Origin: Herpetosiphon giganteus
Lineage (GTDB): Bacteria > Chloroflexota > Chloroflexia > Chloroflexales > Herpetosiphonaceae
Direction of reading: 5' to 3'
Assembly: GCF_016907925.1 (NCBI RefSeq)
Contig: NZ_JAFBCZ010000018.1
Span: 1-64,000 of the forward strand
Length of the DNA stretch: 64,000 nt
The position numbers were made by a program, and so were the translations under genes. Positions 12,499 through 28,764 of this stretch are shown one piece after another; the stretch's first letter is position 1; each line of letters opens with the position of its first letter. The notes beneath the pieces were generated by a model. The model was not told the origin of the DNA, did no database searches, and saw nothing but the letters and a program-made list of their open reading frames with translations.

Positions 12499-12600
12499 AC
12501 GAGCATTATCGCATAGCTAGCCACTTGCATGGCATGATATAATCGCCTTTGAGAAATTTTGTCCCCTTCAATAAAACTTGATGTAGAAAGTGTAGAGGCA

Positions 12601-14343
12601 ATGTCTACGTTAACCTATCCGCACCTGCCCGCGCCCTTCGAAATCATCGGTGCTTGTGGCAAGCAGTCGAGCCATCGGCGTTTTTTTATGGCCAAAAAAG
12701 CGGGCATTCCCTACCTCGTTTGGTGGGAAAGCCGCATTCCCGATGCCTTGCGCAAACAACAAATGGTTGTACAAATTGCCGAACAGGCTGGCAGTGAGGT
12801 CGCTATTTTAGATGTTCAGGCCCTATCGCTGCAACAACTCTTGGATACAGCTGGCAGCCTGCCTGCGCCAGTTGCCGCCCAATATGCCTTAGGCCTGATC
12901 GAAACCGCCGAATTTAACCATCGCCAGCGCACTGCACTCACCAGTAGCAATTTGTATGGCCCAAGTTTGCTCGACCTTGGTTCGCAAGGCACAATTGTGC
13001 CAAAAATCGATTCCAGTTTGGGCCAAAAAGCTGCACCAATTCCAGCGCAATTATTGCCAGTGAACGAACAGCCCAGCCCAGCAGGCGATAGCTATTATAT
13101 CGGAGCCTTAATTGCATGGATGATTAGCGGTCAAGTTGCACCCCAAGGGAATCCTTTAGCCATGTTGCCAGCAATTGATGGCCACTTGGCGAGCATTTTA
13201 CAACGTGCCACTGCCGCCAATCCAAAACAACGCCCAAGCGCCCAAGAGCTTGGCCAACAAATCCAAGATTGGTTATCGGGCAAAGTTACCCAAACTGCCA
13301 AAAAGAAGCCTTCAAAGCTGAAATGGTTGGTCGGTGTAATTAGCACGGCAATCATTACGTTCTTAGTCATCTATGGTTTATCGCAGCGGGATAAAGCATC
13401 GGATACTGAGTTTGGCCAGGCCAAAGCCAATGGGACTCCAAGCACCGATTTCAAGCCCGATCAACCGGGTACAGGCTTGTCTATGCTCGGCGATGTCAAT
13501 GAGGTTGAAATTAATCGGATTGATGATACGGGCTATCCCGATATTGATATGTATCTGAGTATTATGCGCCCGACCGGGGTCGTAACCGATGTCCCACGCC
13601 AAAATGTCAGCGTCTTTGAAAATAATAATAAAATTGAAAACTTCTCATGGGTCAATCTCTCAAAAATTCGCGATCCGCTCAATATTATGTTGGTGATGGA
13701 TACGAGCGGCAGTATGGGTCCCAGCAAAGAAGGCTTAACTGATGGCGGTTTAGATGCAGCCAAAATTGCTGCGCTTGATTTTATTGATCAACTGCCGTCA
13801 AACACCAATCTTGGCTTAATTCACTTTGGCACGATGGTAACGGTCGATCACTCATTAACCGACGATATTGGCGCAGTGCGCCAAAGCATTACCGAGCTTA
13901 AAGCCGAAGGCCAAACAGCAATTTATGATGCCTTGGCAATCAGCTACACCCAATTACGCCGCGCAGAAGGCCGCACCTTCATCGTGCTGATCTCTGATGG
14001 CGCTGATACCGCCAGCAAAGGCGATAATTACGATAGCATTGTGACCAAAGCAGCCAAAGCCAAAATTCCTACCTATATTATTGGCTTGACCAGCCCAGAA
14101 TTTGATGGCAAATTGCTGGAAGATTTGCAACGCGATACCAAAGCGATGATCTATCAAACCCCATCCAAAGAGCAATTGACCAGCTTCTATGGCGAGGTCG
14201 CCCAAGAGGTTGCTGGCCAATATCGGGCCAGTTTCAGCGTGCCTGATAGCTATCCAAGTGGCGCTGGAATTACGCTCAAGGTCGAGGTCAATGCTGGCGA
14301 TGGCCGCTTAGTCACCAAAGAACGCAACTATAACAAACCTTAA
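12601..14343 (+). CDS. membrane-anchored pseudokinase-TM-vWA domain protein
   Basis: degenerate kinase C-lobe (NHRQRTALTSSNLYG in place of HRD; YYIGALIAWMISG...NPKQRPSAQEL), TM LVGVISTAIITFLVIYGL, vWA MIDAS motif MLVMDTSGSMG; start 12601 or 12559. Confidence 0.75.
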   Translation: MSTLTYPHLPAPFEIIGACGKQSSHRRFFMAKKAGIPYLVWWESRIPDALRKQQMVVQIAEQAGSEVAILDVQALSLQQLLDTAGSLPAPVAAQYALGLIETAEFNHRQRTALTSSNLYGPSLLDLGSQGTIVPKIDSSLGQKAAPIPAQLLPVNEQPSPAGDSYYIGALIAWMISGQVAPQGNPLAMLPAIDGHLASILQRATAANPKQRPSAQELGQQIQDWLSGKVTQTAKKKPSKLKWLVGVISTAIITFLVIYGLSQRDKASDTEFGQAKANGTPSTDFKPDQPGTGLSMLGDVNEVEINRIDDTGYPDIDMYLSIMRPTGVVTDVPRQNVSVFENNNKIENFSWVNLSKIRDPLNIMLVMDTSGSMGPSKEGLTDGGLDAAKIAALDFIDQLPSNTNLGLIHFGTMVTVDHSLTDDIGAVRQSITELKAEGQTAIYDALAISYTQLRRAEGRTFIVLISDGADTASKGDNYDSIVTKAAKAKIPTYIIGLTSPEFDGKLLEDLQRDTKAMIYQTPSKEQLTSFYGEVAQEVAGQYRASFSVPDSYPSGAGITLKVEVNAGDGRLVTKERNYNKP

Positions 14344-16955: not shown

Positions 16956-17511
16956 CAGCCAAAACAGCGATACGGGCTTGGGCTAATTGCTGCGAAATTG
17001 CCAAACAAAGCTGGCTGGGCAAGGTCTGGAGATTATGCTCCAAGGTCGCCAACGCATCACCAAAGGTTCGATAGCGCGTATCGCGGCCAACTTTACTCAC
17101 AATCCGCAAGATTCCTACCGCCCCTAGTTGCTCCAAAATATCAGCATCACGCAGTAAACTGGCTTCAAGGCTGGTTGGCGTTTGCTGCGGGCTATGTTGA
17201 GCAATCGCCGCTAAAACTGCCGCAATTTTGGCGCTAGGGAATTGCCATTGATGCAATAAATCTGGCACCATTTTCAAGGCATAGGCCACATTATCCCAAG
17301 CAGCCAATTCGGCTGGGTCAGCAGGCCGATGGCCAATAAAGACCCCAAGATCGTGCAACCATGCCGCCGCATACAACACATCGTCATCATAGACCAAACC
17401 TTCGCCAAGGGTGGTGGCTAGCTGATATAAACGTGGCTGATGGCTATATTTATCGATCGGCAGGGCTTGCGCCCGAATATAGGCCTGAATCTGAGTGCGA
17501 AAATCGAGCAT
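16909..17511 (-). CDS. HD domain phosphohydrolase
   Basis: AAWLHDLGV..H..D motif pattern; 200 aa. Confidence 0.7.
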   Translation of the reverse strand: MLDFRTQIQAYIRAQALPIDKYSHQPRLYQLATTLGEGLVYDDDVLYAAAWLHDLGVFIGHRPADPAELAAWDNVAYALKMVPDLLHQWQFPSAKIAAVLAAIAQHSPQQTPTSLEASLLRDADILEQLGAVGILRIVSKVGRDTRYRTFGDALATLEHNLQTLPSQLCLAISQQLAQARIAVLAEFTTAAQAEAQGQPW

Positions 17512-17596
17512 ACAACGACCTCATAGACTGCAAAACTGCGAAATTATCCGTCAAAACCAACCCATGTGTCACCCGTGTAGACCCTACTTTTGAGAA

Positions 17597-17631
17597 TTGA
17601 CATAAACGTCTTATCGCAGGTACACTACAGC
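17597..17631 (+). promoter_or_regulatory. candidate sigma-70-type promoter (TTGACA, 18-nt spacer, TACACT)
   Basis: read 105 bp upstream of the alpha/beta hydrolase start at 17737. Confidence 0.35.
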
Positions 17632-17736
17632 GACCACTCAACCACAACCCATTTTAGCAAGCAATGCTGCGTTGCCGAGCTTTAGGCGGTATGGTATAGT
17701 TTGGTTGACAGCAGTCTGCAACGTGAGAGCATCACC

Positions 17737-18558
17737 ATGAGCGTAATCGTCATTGATGACCAAGTTGTGCATTACGAGACCTTTGGGCGTGGTCGTCCAG
17801 TCCTATTTCTCCACGGCTGGCTCGGTTCGTGGCGATATTGGATGCCGACGATGGAATTCGTTTCCAAAGATTTCCGCACATATTCGTTCGATTTTTGGGG
17901 TTTTGGTGATTCAGATAAAACAAGTACTGCCAAGAGCATTAGCATTACCAATTTCTCTGATCAAGTGATTCGATTTTTAGATGCCATGGGCATCGATAAG
18001 GTTCCGCTAGTCGGCCACTCAATGGGCGGAATGGTCGCGCTCAAAACTGCAATCCGCCACCCCAATCGGATTAGCCGAGTTGCGGCTATTGGTGCTCCCA
18101 TCGTTGGTACATCGCTTTCAGGCTTGCTCAAGCTCACCGATAATCAGTATGTTTCGCGAGCAATGGCCCGTGTGCCAGTCGTCACCAAGTTTTTGTTTCG
18201 CTGGTTTTTGGGCAATGTCAACGATACCGCCTACGGCGAAATTCTCGACGATAGCGTTAAGCCAACCGAAGAAAGTTTACGCCGCGCCGTTGGCTCGATG
18301 ATGCGCACCGATCTGCGGCCTGAGCTCGAACAATTGACGATTCCGACCTTGGTTGTCCACGGCGCTCGTGACGATATTGTCAATCCCAATCAGGCCGATA
18401 TTTTCTTACAACGCGATATGGCCAACACGCAAGTTTTTGTGATGCCAGAAAGTCGCCATTTTCCCTTCCTTGACGAGCCAGCGCAATTTAACAAGGTGCT
18501 TCACGCCTTCTTAAAACGGCCAGTCAACGAAACCCGTGCTGCTGCTGAAGCAGCATAG
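17737..18558 (+). CDS. alpha/beta hydrolase
   Basis: LFLHGWLGSW, GHSMGG nucleophile elbow; start at MSVIVIDD. Confidence 0.85.
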   Translation: MSVIVIDDQVVHYETFGRGRPVLFLHGWLGSWRYWMPTMEFVSKDFRTYSFDFWGFGDSDKTSTAKSISITNFSDQVIRFLDAMGIDKVPLVGHSMGGMVALKTAIRHPNRISRVAAIGAPIVGTSLSGLLKLTDNQYVSRAMARVPVVTKFLFRWFLGNVNDTAYGEILDDSVKPTEESLRRAVGSMMRTDLRPELEQLTIPTLVVHGARDDIVNPNQADIFLQRDMANTQVFVMPESRHFPFLDEPAQFNKVLHAFLKRPVNETRAAAEAA

Positions 18559-18575
18559 GTAGTTAGGTCAAGTTC

Positions 18576-18863
18576 ATGATTGATGAACAAACTGAAGCCT
18601 TAGTTCGGCGACTCAAAAGTATCGAGGGCCATGTGCGTGGCGTGCAACGCATGCTTGAAGAGGATGCCTACTGTATCGATGTGCTGCGCCAAACCTTAGC
18701 CATTCGCCGCGCACTCGAAAAAGTCGATGCCCTCGTGCTCGAACGCCATCTCTCAACCTGCGTTACCAATGCAATTCGCTCGCCCAACGAGGGCGAACGC
18801 GAACAGGCGATTACCGAAATTCTCGAAATTTTTGCGGCAACCCGCAGCGTTAGCGAGAAATAA
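18576..18863 (+). CDS. CsoR/RcnR/FrmR family metal-sensing transcriptional repressor
   Basis: LKSIEGHVRGVQRMLEEDAYCIDVLRQTLAIRRAL with the family C-H-C pattern (YCID, H, STCV). Confidence 0.75.
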   Translation: MIDEQTEALVRRLKSIEGHVRGVQRMLEEDAYCIDVLRQTLAIRRALEKVDALVLERHLSTCVTNAIRSPNEGEREQAITEILEIFAATRSVSEK

Positions 18864-18871
18864 CCAACCCT

Positions 18872-19900
18872 ATGAATGAGTTGCTACCCTACCCATTGTT
18901 GGGCATTGTCGGCCAAAGCGAGCTGAAAACCGCGCTTACCTTGGCTTTGGTCAATCCCGCTGTGGGTGGGGTTTTGTTAAGTGGCCCCTATGGTGTAGGC
19001 AAAACCACCGCCGTGCGCGGCTTGCTCGATATTATGCCCTTAGTCAAACGCTCGCGCTGCGAGAATAATTGCCCACCCGACGACGAGAGCGACCTCTGCC
19101 CAACCTGCCTCGACTACCTCGAACGCGGCGAATCGCGGCTCAAAGATGATCTCATGCGCTTGATCGAGCTGCCACTCAACGCCCGCTTAGAGGATGTGGT
19201 CGGCGGCGTGAACGAGCGCGTCGCCATCGAACAGCAGCGCGTCCTGCTCGAAGAAGGGGTTTTGGCCCGCGCCAACAATAATTTGCTCTATGTCGATGAA
19301 ATTAATTTGCTTGATCACGCGGTGATCGATGCGATTCTCGATGCAGCAGCCCAAGGCCAAACCTTCGTGCGCCGCGGGGCAATGGTCAAACTCTATCAAA
19401 GTCGCTTGGTGCTCATTGGCTCGATGAATCCAGAGGAAGGTCGCTTGCGTCCGCAAATCTTGGATCGTTTGGGCCTGCGCGTGTGGGTCGGCCCGCAGCC
19501 AAACGCCCGCGAACGGCTCGAAATCTATCGCCGCGCCATTGCCTTTCGCCAAGACCGCACAGCCTTTCGCCTGGCGTATGCCCAAGCCACCACCCAACTG
19601 CGACTCGATGTGCTCAAAGCCCGCGAGTTGCTGCCCAAGGTTCATTTAACCAAAGCTGCTGAACGCTATGCCATGCAGATCATTACTCAGTTGGCAATTC
19701 CTTCGCATCGGGCTGAAATTGTCTTGCTCGAGGCCGCCCGCGCCCGTGCTGCTGCTGATGATCGGCTGCGCGCCACACCCAACGACATCAAAGCAGTTGC
19801 CCCGATGGCCTTGCGCTGGAGACAAAGCCCGCATCTTAACGATTTTCTGAAGCAGCACGAAACCGAGGAAGGCCTCATCGCCCAAGCCTTGCAGGCTTAA
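18872..19900 (+). CDS. ChlI/BchI-like AAA+ ATPase (Mg-chelatase subunit I family) with a Cys-rich insert
   Basis: LLGIVGQSELKTALTLALVNPAVGGVLLSGPYGVGKTTAVR aligns with BchI FSAIVGQE.MK.AL..GGV...G.RGTGKST; LLYVDEINLL Walker B; GSMNPEEGRLRPQILDRLGL; insert CENNCPPDDESDLCPTC. Confidence 0.8.
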   Translation: MNELLPYPLLGIVGQSELKTALTLALVNPAVGGVLLSGPYGVGKTTAVRGLLDIMPLVKRSRCENNCPPDDESDLCPTCLDYLERGESRLKDDLMRLIELPLNARLEDVVGGVNERVAIEQQRVLLEEGVLARANNNLLYVDEINLLDHAVIDAILDAAAQGQTFVRRGAMVKLYQSRLVLIGSMNPEEGRLRPQILDRLGLRVWVGPQPNARERLEIYRRAIAFRQDRTAFRLAYAQATTQLRLDVLKARELLPKVHLTKAAERYAMQIITQLAIPSHRAEIVLLEAARARAAADDRLRATPNDIKAVAPMALRWRQSPHLNDFLKQHETEEGLIAQALQA

Positions 19901-26189: not shown

Positions 26190-26735
26190 TTATTGCCCAG
26201 CGAGCAACAAACGGGCGAGGCGCTCGCCGCCAACCAAATCGGCCAAGTGGGCCAATTGGTTATCTTCATAGGCTTGATTAAACAGCGCGACATCGAGGGC
26301 TAGCACTTTGCGGAAGGCGGTAGTTGCATTCGCAGGATCGCTGCTGGTGGCGGCAATCTGCTCGCCACACGGCATAATAATATCTAACATCGCTAATGGA
26401 TAGCGCACAGGCAAGCCGATGCGCACATGAATTTCGCCAATTTTTAGGCGTTGTTGGGCATAGGCTTCATCATACGTTCCGCGAAACAAATCGCTAAACC
26501 AGGTTCCAAGCATGCCCGTCAAGCGTTCGACCGAAACGCCATCGAGGTATTCAGCGGTCGCGGCGTGGCCAAGCAAGCGCTTGTAAAACGCATCGGTAAA
26601 ATCCTTGGTTTGGGCTTTGGCTCGCTCGTGTAAGCCGCCGAGCAATTGCGCTTCAGCAGCAGAAACATCCATCATTTTGACCAACTCAGTGAGAATGGCC
26701 GTGCCCTTCACGCCCCAACTTTGACGATCTGCCAT
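26190..26735 (-). CDS. globin-coupled-sensor/protoglobin-like globin domain protein (no output domain)
   Basis: FTDAFYKRLL...WFSDLF...QQRLKIGEIHVRIGLPVRYPLAML resembles the sensor-globin core with proximal His in IHVRIG; GGAGG RBS. Confidence 0.5.
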   Translation of the reverse strand: MADRQSWGVKGTAILTELVKMMDVSAAEAQLLGGLHERAKAQTKDFTDAFYKRLLGHAATAEYLDGVSVERLTGMLGTWFSDLFRGTYDEAYAQQRLKIGEIHVRIGLPVRYPLAMLDIIMPCGEQIAATSSDPANATTAFRKVLALDVALFNQAYEDNQLAHLADLVGGERLARLLLAGQ

Positions 26736-26750
26736 GAGCTACCTCCTTGA

Positions 26751-27128
26751 TTAAGCACTCATCAGTTCGGCGATTGCCCGACCAGTTTCCCGCGCTTCAA
26801 TCCGAATCATGCCAAGATTGGCGTGTTGACGCAGAATGATCGCCAGAATCATTTGGGTAGCTACGGGCATGACCAAGAGATAGCCACTTTCGGCGTTAAC
26901 AATGGCCTCGTTGGCCTTACCAATTTTCAAATCATTAACCACGCGGGTCGTGACCCCCATCATGGTGGCTGCAATCGCTCCCATGCGGTCAGCATTGACA
27001 TCAGCCGACATGCGCGAGCTAATCAAAATCCCATCTGAACTAATTAATGCGGCCCCATTAATATCGTTACCATTATTGGTAACCAATTGGCCTAAAATAG
27101 TATTAATTTGTTCCGAACGACTAGCCAT
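26751..27128 (-). CDS. Roadblock/LC7 (MglB-like) domain protein
   Basis: 125 aa; GAALISSDGILISS...AESGYLLVMPV typical of roadblock; overlaps the GTPase gene by 8 bp. Confidence 0.8.
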   Translation of the reverse strand: MASRSEQINTILGQLVTNNGNDINGAALISSDGILISSRMSADVNADRMGAIAATMMGVTTRVVNDLKIGKANEAIVNAESGYLLVMPVATQMILAIILRQHANLGMIRIEARETGRAIAELMSA

Positions 27129-27702
27129 GAGAATGCTCCTTGTGAGTTACAGGCGAGGAGGATGAATCTTGGGCTAAAACGTCGATTCGATCTAATAAGG
27201 TTGAAATAACATCGCTCACCGCAGCATAATCAGTTGCAACGCAAGCGAGAATCGGAATATCGTTTGGTAGCCCTAAACGGCGGCGAATATACGTTGGCGG
27301 CAAGGCCCCAGGTAAATCTTGTTTGGTGGCGGCAACCACAAATGGCACAGGGGTCATGGCCGCGAAGCGTTCCAATACAACAATTGTCTCGTTAAAATGG
27401 GCTGGCCGACAGCTATCAACTAAAACAATATAACCCAAACATCCTTCAGCTAAAATTTCCCACATAAAATCAAAACGTTCTTGGCCTGGCGTGCCAAATA
27501 AGAGCAAGCGTTGTTCGGCATCAATCGTCAACGTGCCGAAATCCAAGCCCACCGTCGTATGATGTTTGAGCTCTTTTTCTTCGGTATGGGTCACGGGAAC
27601 ATCAGTATCAACGACATCGATTTCGCTGACTGTGCGAATAAATTGCGATTTACCCGCCGCGTATGCTCCCGTGATAACAATTTTATAATTGACCATTGTC
27701 AC
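27121..27702 (-). CDS. MglA-like Ras-superfamily small GTPase
   Basis: P-loop GAYAAGKS; G3 FGTPGQERF (TxPGQ variant lacking Asp, as in MglA); G4 ATKQD. Confidence 0.8.
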   Translation of the reverse strand: MTMVNYKIVITGAYAAGKSQFIRTVSEIDVVDTDVPVTHTEEKELKHHTTVGLDFGTLTIDAEQRLLLFGTPGQERFDFMWEILAEGCLGYIVLVDSCRPAHFNETIVVLERFAAMTPVPFVVAATKQDLPGALPPTYIRRRLGLPNDIPILACVATDYAAVSDVISTLLDRIDVLAQDSSSSPVTHKEHSHG

Positions 27703-27704
27703 TC

Positions 27705-28403
27705 CTACGCACTAGCGCTGGTACGACGCAGCCGCGCTTTGATAGCTTGAACCAACCCACGCACCCGAGTTTCAACCATATGCTCAGGGTTAGGAGCCAT
27801 CAAGACCGGGCTAAGCGAACGCTGAGAAACAACAATCTCGCAGGACACCTCCACCAAGTTCAAGGCGATCAAACGATGCAACACTTTGAGAGTTTGATCG
27901 TAATTCCAACCAGTGGCTTCAACCAGTTCGGCCACGCTTAATTCTTGGACCAATTGGCTCAAAATGCGCCAATCTTCGAGGGTCAGGGTGATGTCGCTGG
28001 CTTGGCTGAGCTTTGGTACCAAGCGCAAACGCGAGGTTGGCTGAAGTTTGGTCGTGCCAGCCAAGCGTTGTGGTTGGTCGCGGCGACGCAAGCCTTCAAT
28101 AATCAGCCAATCAATTGAGCGTTGAATTTGCACGCTGACCGTTTCTTGCGGGTTGGGTGGCAAAAAGACAAATTGGGCATCGTCCCAAGCCAGCATATCA
28201 AACACCGCTTGTTCACCACACGTTACCCGTTCATGGGACGTATTTTTGACCACCCCTGCATTGATGATCGCGCCATCAAAAAACCATAACATCGCCTTGA
28301 ATGGAGCATTCGCAATCAGTAGACGACCAGTTTTGCGCCCATGATGAAATACATGCATCAAATCAATTAATGGCATATCAGCAAAATTACCTTCGAGAGC
28401 CAT
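27705..28403 (-). CDS. DUF4388 (MglA-associated) domain protein
   Basis: N-terminus LEGNFADMPLIDLMHVFHHGRKTGRLLI is the DUF4388 signature; AAGGAGA RBS; 2-bp gap to the GTPase start. Confidence 0.7.
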   Translation of the reverse strand: MALEGNFADMPLIDLMHVFHHGRKTGRLLIANAPFKAMLWFFDGAIINAGVVKNTSHERVTCGEQAVFDMLAWDDAQFVFLPPNPQETVSVQIQRSIDWLIIEGLRRRDQPQRLAGTTKLQPTSRLRLVPKLSQASDITLTLEDWRILSQLVQELSVAELVEATGWNYDQTLKVLHRLIALNLVEVSCEIVVSQRSLSPVLMAPNPEHMVETRVRGLVQAIKARLRRTSASA

Positions 28404-28764
28404 AGCCGTCTCCTTTTTGCGCAGTACAACCAGTCGATGTTGTCTAGGTTTTGTCCATATTCTGTACAAAAATAATACATAACTGGAACAAATATATTTT
28501 CTAGCAGGCTTAATTGCAGGCATCGACGTAAGAAAAATAACAACTGTATTATGGCCGCAACTGGATGTATCCGTCTATGATATGTCAATACTCTTTATGG
28601 CTATGCAGGGGTAAGGTAACGATTGGGATGGAAGTACTAGAAGACGTTTCCATGGAGAGGAGCGAAGGTATAACGTGCTAGGTTGATTGAACCATGCCTA
28701 AGAGGGGTTTGTCAAGATGGGATACAATAGCCACGATCTGCGGTTTTTTAGTATTGAGGTTGTT

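Follow-up and report, generated by a model that had tools for sequence, protein, structure and literature searches.

Background

Chelatase-type genes that stand apart from a chelatase operon are not new in the phylum Chloroflexota. Chloroflexus aurantiacus has an unlinked BchI-2/BchD-2 (PMC9316378, PMC3150298). In phototrophic Chloroflexus, BchI-1/BchD-1 are encoded separately in an operon, and BchI-2 is expressed outside the phototrophic phase (PMC9316378). Anaerolineaceae that contain a separate chlI together with a frameshifted chlD reportedly have neither the large subunit nor a pathway to B12 or chlorophyll (PMC9227772). The function of such chlI and chlD genes in Chloroflexi without a large subunit has been published as unknown (PMC9227772); chlI and chlD together can replace cobS and cobT (PMC9227772, citing Rodionov et al.). 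The role of ChlI/ChlD pairs in those Chloroflexota that have no large chelatase subunit is a question already raised in the literature.

Among the curated protein families, TIGR02442 comprises proteins of about 640 residues, in which an N-terminal ChlI-like AAA+ module is joined to a C-terminal vWA domain. For the copper sensor CsoR, the cso operon of M. tuberculosis provides the typical layout of a target: the gene that follows csoR belongs to the same operon. We here discuss a csoR gene and a chlI-like gene that lie side by side in a 64-kb stretch of Herpetosiphon giganteus DNA, called the window below.

The gene pair and its surroundings

The features of the locus are compiled in Table 1. 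Both open reading frames and the short spacer between them were found just as a preliminary description, made from the letters alone, had placed them. A terminator scan of the spacer detected no terminator-like site on the + strand.

Table 1. Positions of the genes, motifs and putative sites of the csoR-chlI locus, counted from the first letter of the window
Feature	Position	Strand	Description	Basis
Promoter-like site	17597..17626	+	TTGACA, 18 nt, TACACT; 5' of hydrolase gene	consensus scan
alpha/beta-Hydrolase gene	17701..18558	+	ends 17 bp 5' of csoR	PF00561, E = 4e-32
csoR	18576..18863	+	CsoR/RcnR-family repressor, 95 aa	PF02583, alignments to 2HH7, 4M1P, 4ADZ, 3AAI
csoR ligand codons	C33 18672-18674; H58 18747-18749; C62 18759-18761	+
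csoR/chlI-like spacer	18864..18871	+	8 bp, csoR stop codon to chlI-like start codon
ChlI/BchI-type AAA+ ATPase gene	18872..19900	+	intact, 342 aa; Chloroflexota orphan ChlI group
ATPase motif codons	Walker A GPYGVGKTT 18983-19009; Walker B LLYVDE 19283-19300	+
ATPase motif codons	sensor 1 N186 19427-19429; Arg R193 19448-19450; sensor 2 R280 19709-19711	+
Putative zinc knuckle	19058..19111	+	codons of C63-x3-C67-x9-C77-x2-C80; linker from the helix after Walker A to the next strand

The hydrolase gene, whose start is called at position 17737 in relatives, precedes csoR also in the loci L001 and L082; in the sister lineage (L088) it is absent from this place. The -35 and -10 hexamers of the promoter-like site and the leader are kept in L082 (95% identical), and the two sequences diverge farther upstream. 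The site is likely the start of a hydrolase-csoR-chlI transcript, and the three genes are probably co-transcribed in the window genome. A riboswitch or other RNA was sought in the conserved leader and rejected, the window having no Rfam match at gathering score. A single sub-threshold Rfam match between 17300 and 19000 was judged a chance hit.

Gene searches of the 64 kb revealed no ChlD, ChlH/CobN, bch, cob or cop gene and no open reading frame of more than 600 aa, which agrees with the earlier statement that chelatase partners and bch genes are missing here. Genes for DUF503, LonN, ArgJ and MTase are likewise absent from the window. A 594-aa vWA protein (12559-14343) was considered as a ChlD partner and dismissed: ChlD and ChlID queries match only chlI in the window, and this protein neighbours chlI in near-identical relatives only. 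Membership in a defence system was rejected, as PADLOC gave no meaningful match, and so was horizontal transfer, the GC content staying at 0.49-0.58 over 14-24 kb, without a step at csoR and chlI.

The ATPase and its family

The ATPase belongs to the class I chelatase AAA+ family, in which it represents an intact small ("I") subunit. Its residues 6-318 align with ChlI (8OSF, 6L8D) and BchI (1G8P) with E values of 2.8e-51 to 2e-49 (phmmer against the PDB), and the AlphaFold2 model (mean pLDDT 90.3) superimposes on 1G8P and 8OSG with TM scores of 0.76-0.83 (Foldseek). The end-to-end similarity to Mg-chelatase subunit I that had been noted before is thus confirmed in sequence and fold. K44/T45, D142/E143, N186, R193/R199 and R280 are invariant in an alignment of 115 sequences (A3) and in a cross-phylum alignment (A4); the catalytic motifs contain no unusual substitutions.

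The BchI model of NCBIfam, TIGR02030, yields 235.7 bits, i.e., half of its equivalog cut-off of 466.95. TIGR02442 is the best-scoring curated model (305.9 bits; cut-off 779.45), yet the match covers only model positions 1-311 of 641, which is the N-terminal half. The vWA domain is absent from the window ATPase, which stops at 342 aa.

At E <= 1e-10 we retrieved 7,655 homologues, the best ones from Herpetosiphonaceae, Kallotenue, Roseiflexus and Kouleothrix. The window ATPase is 50-95% identical to the members of its group over 92-100% of the length, and a neighbour-joining tree places it within the Herpetosiphon-like members; the JGI metagenomes contained no relative above 64% identity. From genomes and metagenomes of Chloroflexota we assembled 173 related loci. 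Among them are members of this orthologous group from Chloroflexus, Roseiflexus, Oscillochloris and a large number of Anaerolineaceae, and the hosts of the family comprise organisms without phototrophy, e.g., Herpetosiphonaceae, Kallotenue and Anaerolineae. A cobN or chlH gene was seen at none of these loci. A chlD-like gene lies within about 6 kb of chlI at two of them, L027 and L112; NCBI calls the Chloroflexales orthologues of the L027 protein "putative cobaltochelatase". Some sources label the homologues of the window ATPase "magnesium chelatase subunit I". The orthologous group spans phototrophic and non-phototrophic Chloroflexota and is almost never encoded beside its partners. We infer that Caur_1255 is the Chloroflexus orthologue of the window chlI. 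Since the Anaerolineaceae with a separate chlI and a frameshifted chlD reportedly possess neither a large subunit nor a pathway to B12 or chlorophyll (PMC9227772), the family as a whole cannot be assigned a role as chelatase.

The four cysteines

A cluster of four cysteines, inserted after Walker A, had been noted in the preliminary description. The cysteines (C63, C67, C77 and C80) are indeed present, but they do not sit in an insertion: at this position, the linker of ChlI and BchI is as long as that of the window ATPase or longer. Nor are they an extra of this particular protein. The 121 closest homologues are of an all-or-none type: 54 have four or five cysteines (C-x3-C-x8-14-C-x2-C), and the other 67 are free of cysteines due to a linker deletion of 19 residues. 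In a set of 152 related loci, the full motif was found in 88, two cysteines in 26 and none in 36. From the Chloroflexales orthologues the motif has been cleanly deleted. It recurs at the same position in a BchI of Thiodictyon, encoded beside bchD and bchO, and in a haloarchaeal ChlID of Natronococcus, encoded beside cobN; the archaeal ChlI-like genes of Halolamina and Haloterrigena, which neighbour vWA genes, have it as well.

The distribution among the sequences indicates that the motif is ancestral in the Chloroflexota family and that some clades lost or reduced it. More generally, it is an ancestral trait of the I subunits of class I chelatases, one that was lost, as it happens, from the crystallised model proteins. 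The four cysteines probably form a zinc-binding structural knuckle and not a new metal-handling module; the model confidence in this stretch is a pLDDT of 76-81. Because the motif is shared with the Thiodictyon BchI and a CobN-adjacent ChlID and is deleted in Chloroflexales, it says nothing about a non-tetrapyrrole function, and its earlier reading as a pointer to such a role has to be abandoned.

The CsoR protein

The 95-aa protein matches PF02583 with E = 9e-27 and 93.7 bits (gathering score 22.8). In alignments to the CsoR proteins of M. tuberculosis (2HH7) and Geobacillus (4M1P), C33, H58 and C62 correspond to C36, H61 and C65, so that the proposal of a CsoR/RcnR repressor with an intact C-H-C ligand set stands. 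The second-shell residues Y32, which precedes C33, and E81, which lies opposite a glutamate of the 2HH7 chain, are kept. Judged by its residues, the csoR product is a CsoR of the ordinary Cu(I) type, with the x-C-H-C fingerprint.

A convincing operator did not emerge. The pattern ACCC-N(2-12)-GGGT, which is not established for CsoR of Chloroflexota, is absent near the operon and has a single match in the window (89-102), fewer than expected by chance. An inverted-repeat scan of 17480-18900 detected no convincing palindrome. The sole palindrome before csoR (12 nt, 18532-18560) was rejected as a CsoR operator; it is coding sequence, namely terminal alanine codons of the hydrolase gene, and has not been retained in L082.

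How csoR and chlI may have become neighbours

The pairing of csoR with chlI is rare, an outcome that the preliminary description had itself named as speaking against its reading. As the upstream neighbour of chlI, csoR is found at four of the 173 loci only, and these represent two sister lineages, that of the window and that of L088. The upstream gene is a hotdog thioesterase-like gene at 72 of the loci and DUF503 at 38. In L088 the distance between csoR and chlI is 351 bp and includes a 66-aa open reading frame and two hairpins; these two are the sole genes that its neighbourhood has in common with that of the window.

Every relative of 67-76% identity that could be examined has chlI in a cluster MTase-ArgJ-LonN-DUF503-chlI. 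The order LonN-DUF503-chlI is kept in 38 loci, and at several loci the stop codon of DUF503 overlaps the start of chlI. A search with the LonN protein of this ancestral cluster led to P0136, a protein from another genome, where LonN-DUF503-chlI is met again. DUF503 directly upstream is the arrangement typical of the class Chloroflexia; in the window, csoR takes this place. In the neighbour-joining tree, the csoR-linked chlI genes form one small clade with normal branch lengths, nested inside the DUF503-linked ones.

The adjacency is best explained, with fair probability, by a single recent event that moved (or copied) chlI from its ancestral position behind DUF503 and that we would place, with the same degree of conviction, in the common ancestor of the two Herpetosiphon-like lineages. 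The adjacency has been retained in both of them though both flanks changed; selection for linkage could be the reason.

What the motor may do

We consider it probable that the window ATPase is an I-subunit motor with a ChlD-like partner encoded elsewhere, that its knuckle is structural and that its linkage to csoR is incidental. By homology, the protein would form an ATP-driven hexameric ring and cooperate with a ChlD-type protein (AAA+ plus vWA), the partner being predicted from other Chloroflexota. Where a genome has cobN, the I-D pair would most likely be the motor of a CobN-type cobaltochelatase; where cobN is missing, the pair would have some other client. Through co-transcription with the hydrolase gene and csoR, chlI may have turned copper-responsive; this would then be a side effect of the rearrangement and give no clue to the function of the family.

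Of course, the gene order invites another interpretation, namely a ChlI-type motor in a CsoR-controlled response to copper or other metals, with a knuckle that binds, inserts or chaperones the metal outside of tetrapyrrole synthesis. The tight spacing without a terminator, the intact Cu(I) ligands of CsoR, the cso-like position of chlI and the fact that nothing except these two genes is common to the window and L088 speak for it. The pairing, however, is limited to two lineages and is loose in L088, where an open reading frame and hairpins intervene; the knuckle is common to genuine BchI and ChlID and dispensed with in Chloroflexales orthologues; a CsoR-type operator is not seen near the operon, the only palindrome before csoR being coding and not conserved; cop genes are absent from the window, and the catalytic motifs are unremarkable. 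We therefore regard this proposal, which was that of the preliminary description, as improbable. Its narrower form, that the Herpetosiphon-like lineage placed a ChlI-type motor without large subunit under a Cu(I)-sensing CsoR, is more doubtful still. If true, the "ChlI/ChlD without ChlH/CobN" of Chloroflexota would serve metal homeostasis instead of tetrapyrrole synthesis, e.g., in ATP-driven loading of a metal onto a protein client or its removal from there.

A housekeeping ChlI plus ChlD motor without large subunit, which acts on a non-tetrapyrrole client and for which the csoR neighbour is irrelevant, appears unlikely to us, but deserves more credit. The family occurs in nearly all Chloroflexota, also in strict anaerobes reportedly devoid of B12 and chlorophyll pathways and of the large subunit (PMC9227772), and cobN or chlH is never adjacent. 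The conserved LonN-DUF503-chlI order, with DUF503 translationally coupled and LonN standing alone, might suggest protein or ribosome quality control as an example of a client process. The neighbours, however, vary by class, so that there is no phylum-wide partner; the window lineage gave up the linkage to DUF503, and its protein shows no visible change; and the top curated model is a cobaltochelatase family. A true Mg-chelatase BchI for bacteriochlorophyll synthesis, in turn, would account for the end-to-end similarity and for the database labels. It is effectively refuted by the halved TIGR02030 score, the non-phototrophic hosts, the BchI-1/BchD-1 operon that Chloroflexus has in addition to a BchI-2 used outside the phototrophic phase (PMC9316378), and the lack of bch genes in the window.

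With the reading of an I-subunit motor incidentally linked to csoR, two seeming oddities of the locus disappear: the "Cys insertion" and the "metal-sensor coupling". For the role of ChlI/ChlD pairs without large subunit, the gene order provides modest leads: in Chloroflexia, the linkage of chlI to DUF503 and to a protein that consists of a Lon N-terminal domain standing alone, in Anaerolineae that to a thioesterase-like gene, and the chlD-like gene that is occasionally near.

Comparison with known systems

With the established CsoR proteins (2HH7, 4M1P and 4ADZ of Streptomyces), the window CsoR shares the PF02583 domain, the C-H-C ligands, the second-shell tyrosine and glutamate, and a similar size. 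Unlike the known loci, the window has no copA, copZ or ctpV-type gene after csoR and no detectable GC-rich CsoR-type operator, and its csoR sits mid-operon, behind the hydrolase gene.

The chlI gene resembles BchI-2/BchD-2 of Chloroflexus and chlI of Anaerolineaceae in being a ChlI-type gene of the same phylum that is located away from a chelatase operon. It differs in following csoR instead of DUF503 (Chloroflexia) or a thioesterase-like gene (Anaerolineae).

Compared with BchI and ChlI (1G8P, 6L8D, 8OSF-8OSH), the protein is 33-37% identical over the full length, has the same fold (TM about 0.8), identical Walker A, Walker B, sensor 1, arginine and sensor 2 residues, and a similarly long linker after the Walker A helix. 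In contrast to BchI, it scores far under the BchI equivalog cut-off, is not accompanied by bchD or bchH and belongs to a family that occurs in non-phototrophs; the crystallised ChlI/BchI, in turn, retain few or none of the four cysteines.

The "putative cobaltochelatase" family TIGR02442, i.e., the CobN-associated ChlI-ChlD fusions, differs from the window ATPase by its C-terminal linker and vWA half and by the cobN gene nearby; the score of the window ATPase stays far below the cut-off of 779 bits. It is nevertheless the curated model that fits best, and in its CobN-linked members from Natronococcus and Spirosoma this knuckle is found as well, either in full or with three of the four cysteines.

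The ChlI-like ATPase

The protein encoded by the chlI-like gene is a ChlI/BchI-type AAA+ ATPase. Residues 6-318 match the solved ChlI and BchI sequences (E about 1e-50), and its AlphaFold2 model, with a mean pLDDT of 90.3, overlays 1G8P and 8OSG with TM values of 0.76-0.83. The catalytic motifs (Walker A, Walker B, sensor 1, arginines, sensor 2) are complete and do not vary across the homologues. Where positions are otherwise conserved, the protein departs in only a few places, by conservative changes and outside the catalytic residues. The best curated model is TIGR02442, 'putative cobaltochelatase' (N-terminal half, 306 bits), followed by the BchI model TIGR02030 (236 bits). Because both scores are far under the cut-offs, the protein is a distinct branch of the family. 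It belongs, as an ordinary member, to a Chloroflexota-wide group of orphan ChlI proteins that had been noticed before. In an earlier phylogeny the additional BchI isoforms of green bacteria had already grouped with non-phototroph sequences (PMC3595025).

The cysteine motif

The four cysteines (C63-x3-C67-x9-C77-x2-C80) reside in the linker that joins the helix following Walker A to the next strand. The preliminary description took them for an insertion, yet the linker of ChlI/BchI proteins is equally long or longer there. The 121 closest proteins show exactly two states: 54 carry C-x3-C-x8-11-C-x2-C, and in the other 67, which are Roseiflexus, Kouleothrix and further Chloroflexales types, a stretch of ~19 residues is cleanly deleted and no cysteine remains. 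Among 152 related loci with a recognisable linker, the full motif is found in 88, no cysteine in 36, two retained cysteines in 26 (an Anaerolineae subgroup) and four cysteines of different spacing in 2. That they are kept or lost together argues that the four act as one unit, most simply a putative zinc knuckle.

The identical motif is seen at the same aligned position in the BchI of Thiodictyon syntrophicum, whose gene adjoins bchD and bchO, in a Natronococcus ChlI-ChlD fusion adjoining cobN, and in ChlI-like genes of Halolamina and Haloterrigena adjoining vWA genes; a CobN-linked fusion protein of Spirosoma has three of the four cysteines. The motif is thus, on its distribution, of long standing in genuine chelatase subunits and was lost in the crystallised model proteins. 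The knuckle is ancestral to the chelatase family and gives no hint of the non-tetrapyrrole role once read into it.

The csoR gene and its surroundings

The CsoR protein scores 93.7 bits against PF02583. Its C33, H58 and C62 align with the Cu(I) ligands C36, H61 and C65 of the M. tuberculosis (2HH7) and Geobacillus (4M1P) proteins, and its C-H-C set had correctly been called intact; Y32 and E81 are likewise retained. A CsoR-type operator was not found in the window, where ACCC-N(2-12)-GGGT has a single match. The sole palindrome just 5' of csoR is made of the alanine codons that close the preceding hydrolase gene; not being conserved in the 95%-identical relative L082, it was rejected as an operator. 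The window contains neither copA nor copZ.

Only 8 bp separate csoR from chlI, and a scan for terminators found none on the + strand between them; the alpha/beta-hydrolase gene ends 17 bp before csoR. With a promoter-like site ahead of the hydrolase gene, such short gaps and no terminator, we infer a plausible hydrolase-csoR-chlI operon. Promoter-like site and leader are kept in L082; the leader (~100 nt, no Rfam match) is almost identical there, and 5' of the -35 hexamer the two sequences have diverged. Convergent genes for a 131-aa membrane protein, a PLD-type enzyme, MoeA and PanD follow 3' of the pair. No riboswitch, defence-system or compositional signal adds to this picture.

Two loci, L008 from Roseiflexus and L005 from an unclassified member of the Chloroflexota, encode a 62%-identical orthologue of the hydrolase ~3 kb downstream of their orphan chlI and on the other strand. 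The arrangement may go back to an older shared neighbourhood, or be coincidental.

Features of the window and of related orphan-chlI loci
Feature	Sequence	Position	Strand	Remarks
ACCC-N(2-12)-GGGT match	window	89-102		
vWA protein	window	12559-14343	+	594 aa
Promoter-like site	window	17597-17626	+	TTGACA, 18 nt, TACACT; ahead of hydrolase gene
Leader	window	17640-17736		before hydrolase gene
csoR	window	18576-18863	+	95-aa ORF
chlI-like gene	window	18872-19900	+	342-aa ORF
Protoglobin, Roadblock/LC7, MglA-like small GTPase, DUF4388/PatA_N protein	window	26190-28523	-	cluster
Hydrolase orthologue	L005	13419-14246	-	
Hydrolase orthologue	L008	4577-5341	-	
RlmI-like methyltransferase-ArgJ-LON_substr_bdg-DUF503-chlI	L083	5100-9071		ArgJ 6294-7037
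Same cluster	L084	4638-9059		ArgJ 5816-7033
Same cluster	L086	5068-9092		ArgJ 6259-7020
Same cluster	L170	2885-7059		ArgJ 4145-4933
Same cluster	L174	3537-8003		ArgJ 4815-6011
ArgJ	L085	6094-6882		
Anaerolineae-type chlI neighbourhood	L055	8940-11721		
Foreign-looking ORF next to csoR, AbrB/MazE-like ORF, two hairpins	L088	1-830		
ChlD-like gene, split	L112	4107-6148	-	

Neighbourhoods of orphan chlI genes

Species-representative genomes, metagenomes and exact-protein look-ups yielded 173 loci encoding relatives of 50-100% identity. Immediately upstream of chlI, 72 loci (Anaerolineae and allies) have a hotdog thioesterase-like gene, 38 (Chloroflexia) have DUF503 and 4 have csoR. The latter represent two lineages, the window's own (L001, identical; L082, 95%) and a sister lineage (L088/L089; ChlI 76% identical, CsoR 73%). 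In L088, csoR and chlI are separated by 351 bp that contain a 66-aa AbrB/MazE-like ORF and two GC-rich hairpins; an AT-rich ORF of foreign appearance adjoins csoR, and both flanks are unlike the window's. All other relatives of 67-76% identity open to examination (P0002, P0004-P0007 and P0010-P0012) have the order RlmI-like methyltransferase, ArgJ, Lon N-terminal domain protein, DUF503, chlI, and a more distant genome has it too. A neighbour-joining tree groups the csoR-linked proteins in a single small clade, with ordinary branch lengths, nested within the DUF503-linked ones. On the simplest reading of these sequences, chlI would have moved once, recently, behind csoR, or been duplicated there. 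The adjacency to csoR reflects a recent rearrangement of narrow distribution.

In several loci the stop codon of DUF503 and the start of chlI overlap, which suggests translational coupling. The Lon N-terminal protein of this cluster is a stand-alone one. ArgJ measures 398-405 aa in L084 and L174 and only 247-262 aa in several Herpetosiphon-like loci (L083, L085, L086, L170), where it may be truncated or split. In L055 and ~70 other Anaerolineae-type loci, chlI is preceded by a 148-aa ORF and a 159-aa hotdog thioesterase-like gene and followed by a 225-aa membrane protein. Anaerolineales-type chlI genes also occur in loci assigned to a Gammaproteobacteria MAG (L066) and a Methanosarcinales MAG (L067, linker peptide identical to L065 and L146); these contigs are probably wrongly binned.

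Partner subunits and probable function

The reported lack of a ChlD or ChlH partner and of bch genes in the window holds. All window ORFs are 600 aa or shorter, too short to encode ChlH or CobN; Pfam annotation of all window ORFs of at least 180 aa revealed no bch, cob, chlD or cop genes, and queries with ChlD, ChlID and CobN matched solely chlI itself. The 594-aa protein, which combines a kinase-like N-terminal region and a transmembrane segment with a vWA domain at its C-terminus, does not resemble ChlD; its conservation is limited to near-identical relatives. ChlD-like genes do exist in orphan-chlI organisms. L027 encodes a 741-aa AAA+-vWA fusion 5.5 kb from its chlI, the Chloroflexales orthologues of which NCBI names 'putative cobaltochelatase'; in L112 the distance from chlI to a ChlD-like gene is 1.1 kb, and this gene is split into a 383-aa AAA+ ORF and a 291-aa vWA ORF 14 nt apart.

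We favour, with some reservation, the following reading: ChlI would form an ATP-driven ring, work with a ChlD-like protein encoded elsewhere in the genome and serve CobN, if the genome has one. Its probable co-transcription with csoR in this lineage would be a by-product of the rearrangement. For the csoR-linked chlI, a true link to copper could be invoked, since the adjacency survived in two lineages although both flanks changed; with csoR at 4 of 173 loci and the other relatives at 67-76% identity linked to DUF503, we consider it improbable. The preliminary description was, then, largely right as observation, while its two striking elements, the cysteine insertion and the coupling to csoR, dissolve.

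Published work fits a partner encoded elsewhere. Chloroflexus aurantiacus has BchI-1/BchD-1 in a photosynthesis operon, and cobN is also present in its genome (PMC3150298). In aerobic cobaltochelatase, cobS and cobT can be replaced by the products of chlI and chlD (PMC9227772, citing Rodionov et al.). Several Anaerolineaceae are reported to possess a frameshifted chlD and a separate chlI without a large subunit or a B12 or chlorophyll pathway, a pair whose function was called unexplored (PMC9227772). It is this frameshifted chlD that the split gene of L112 resembles.
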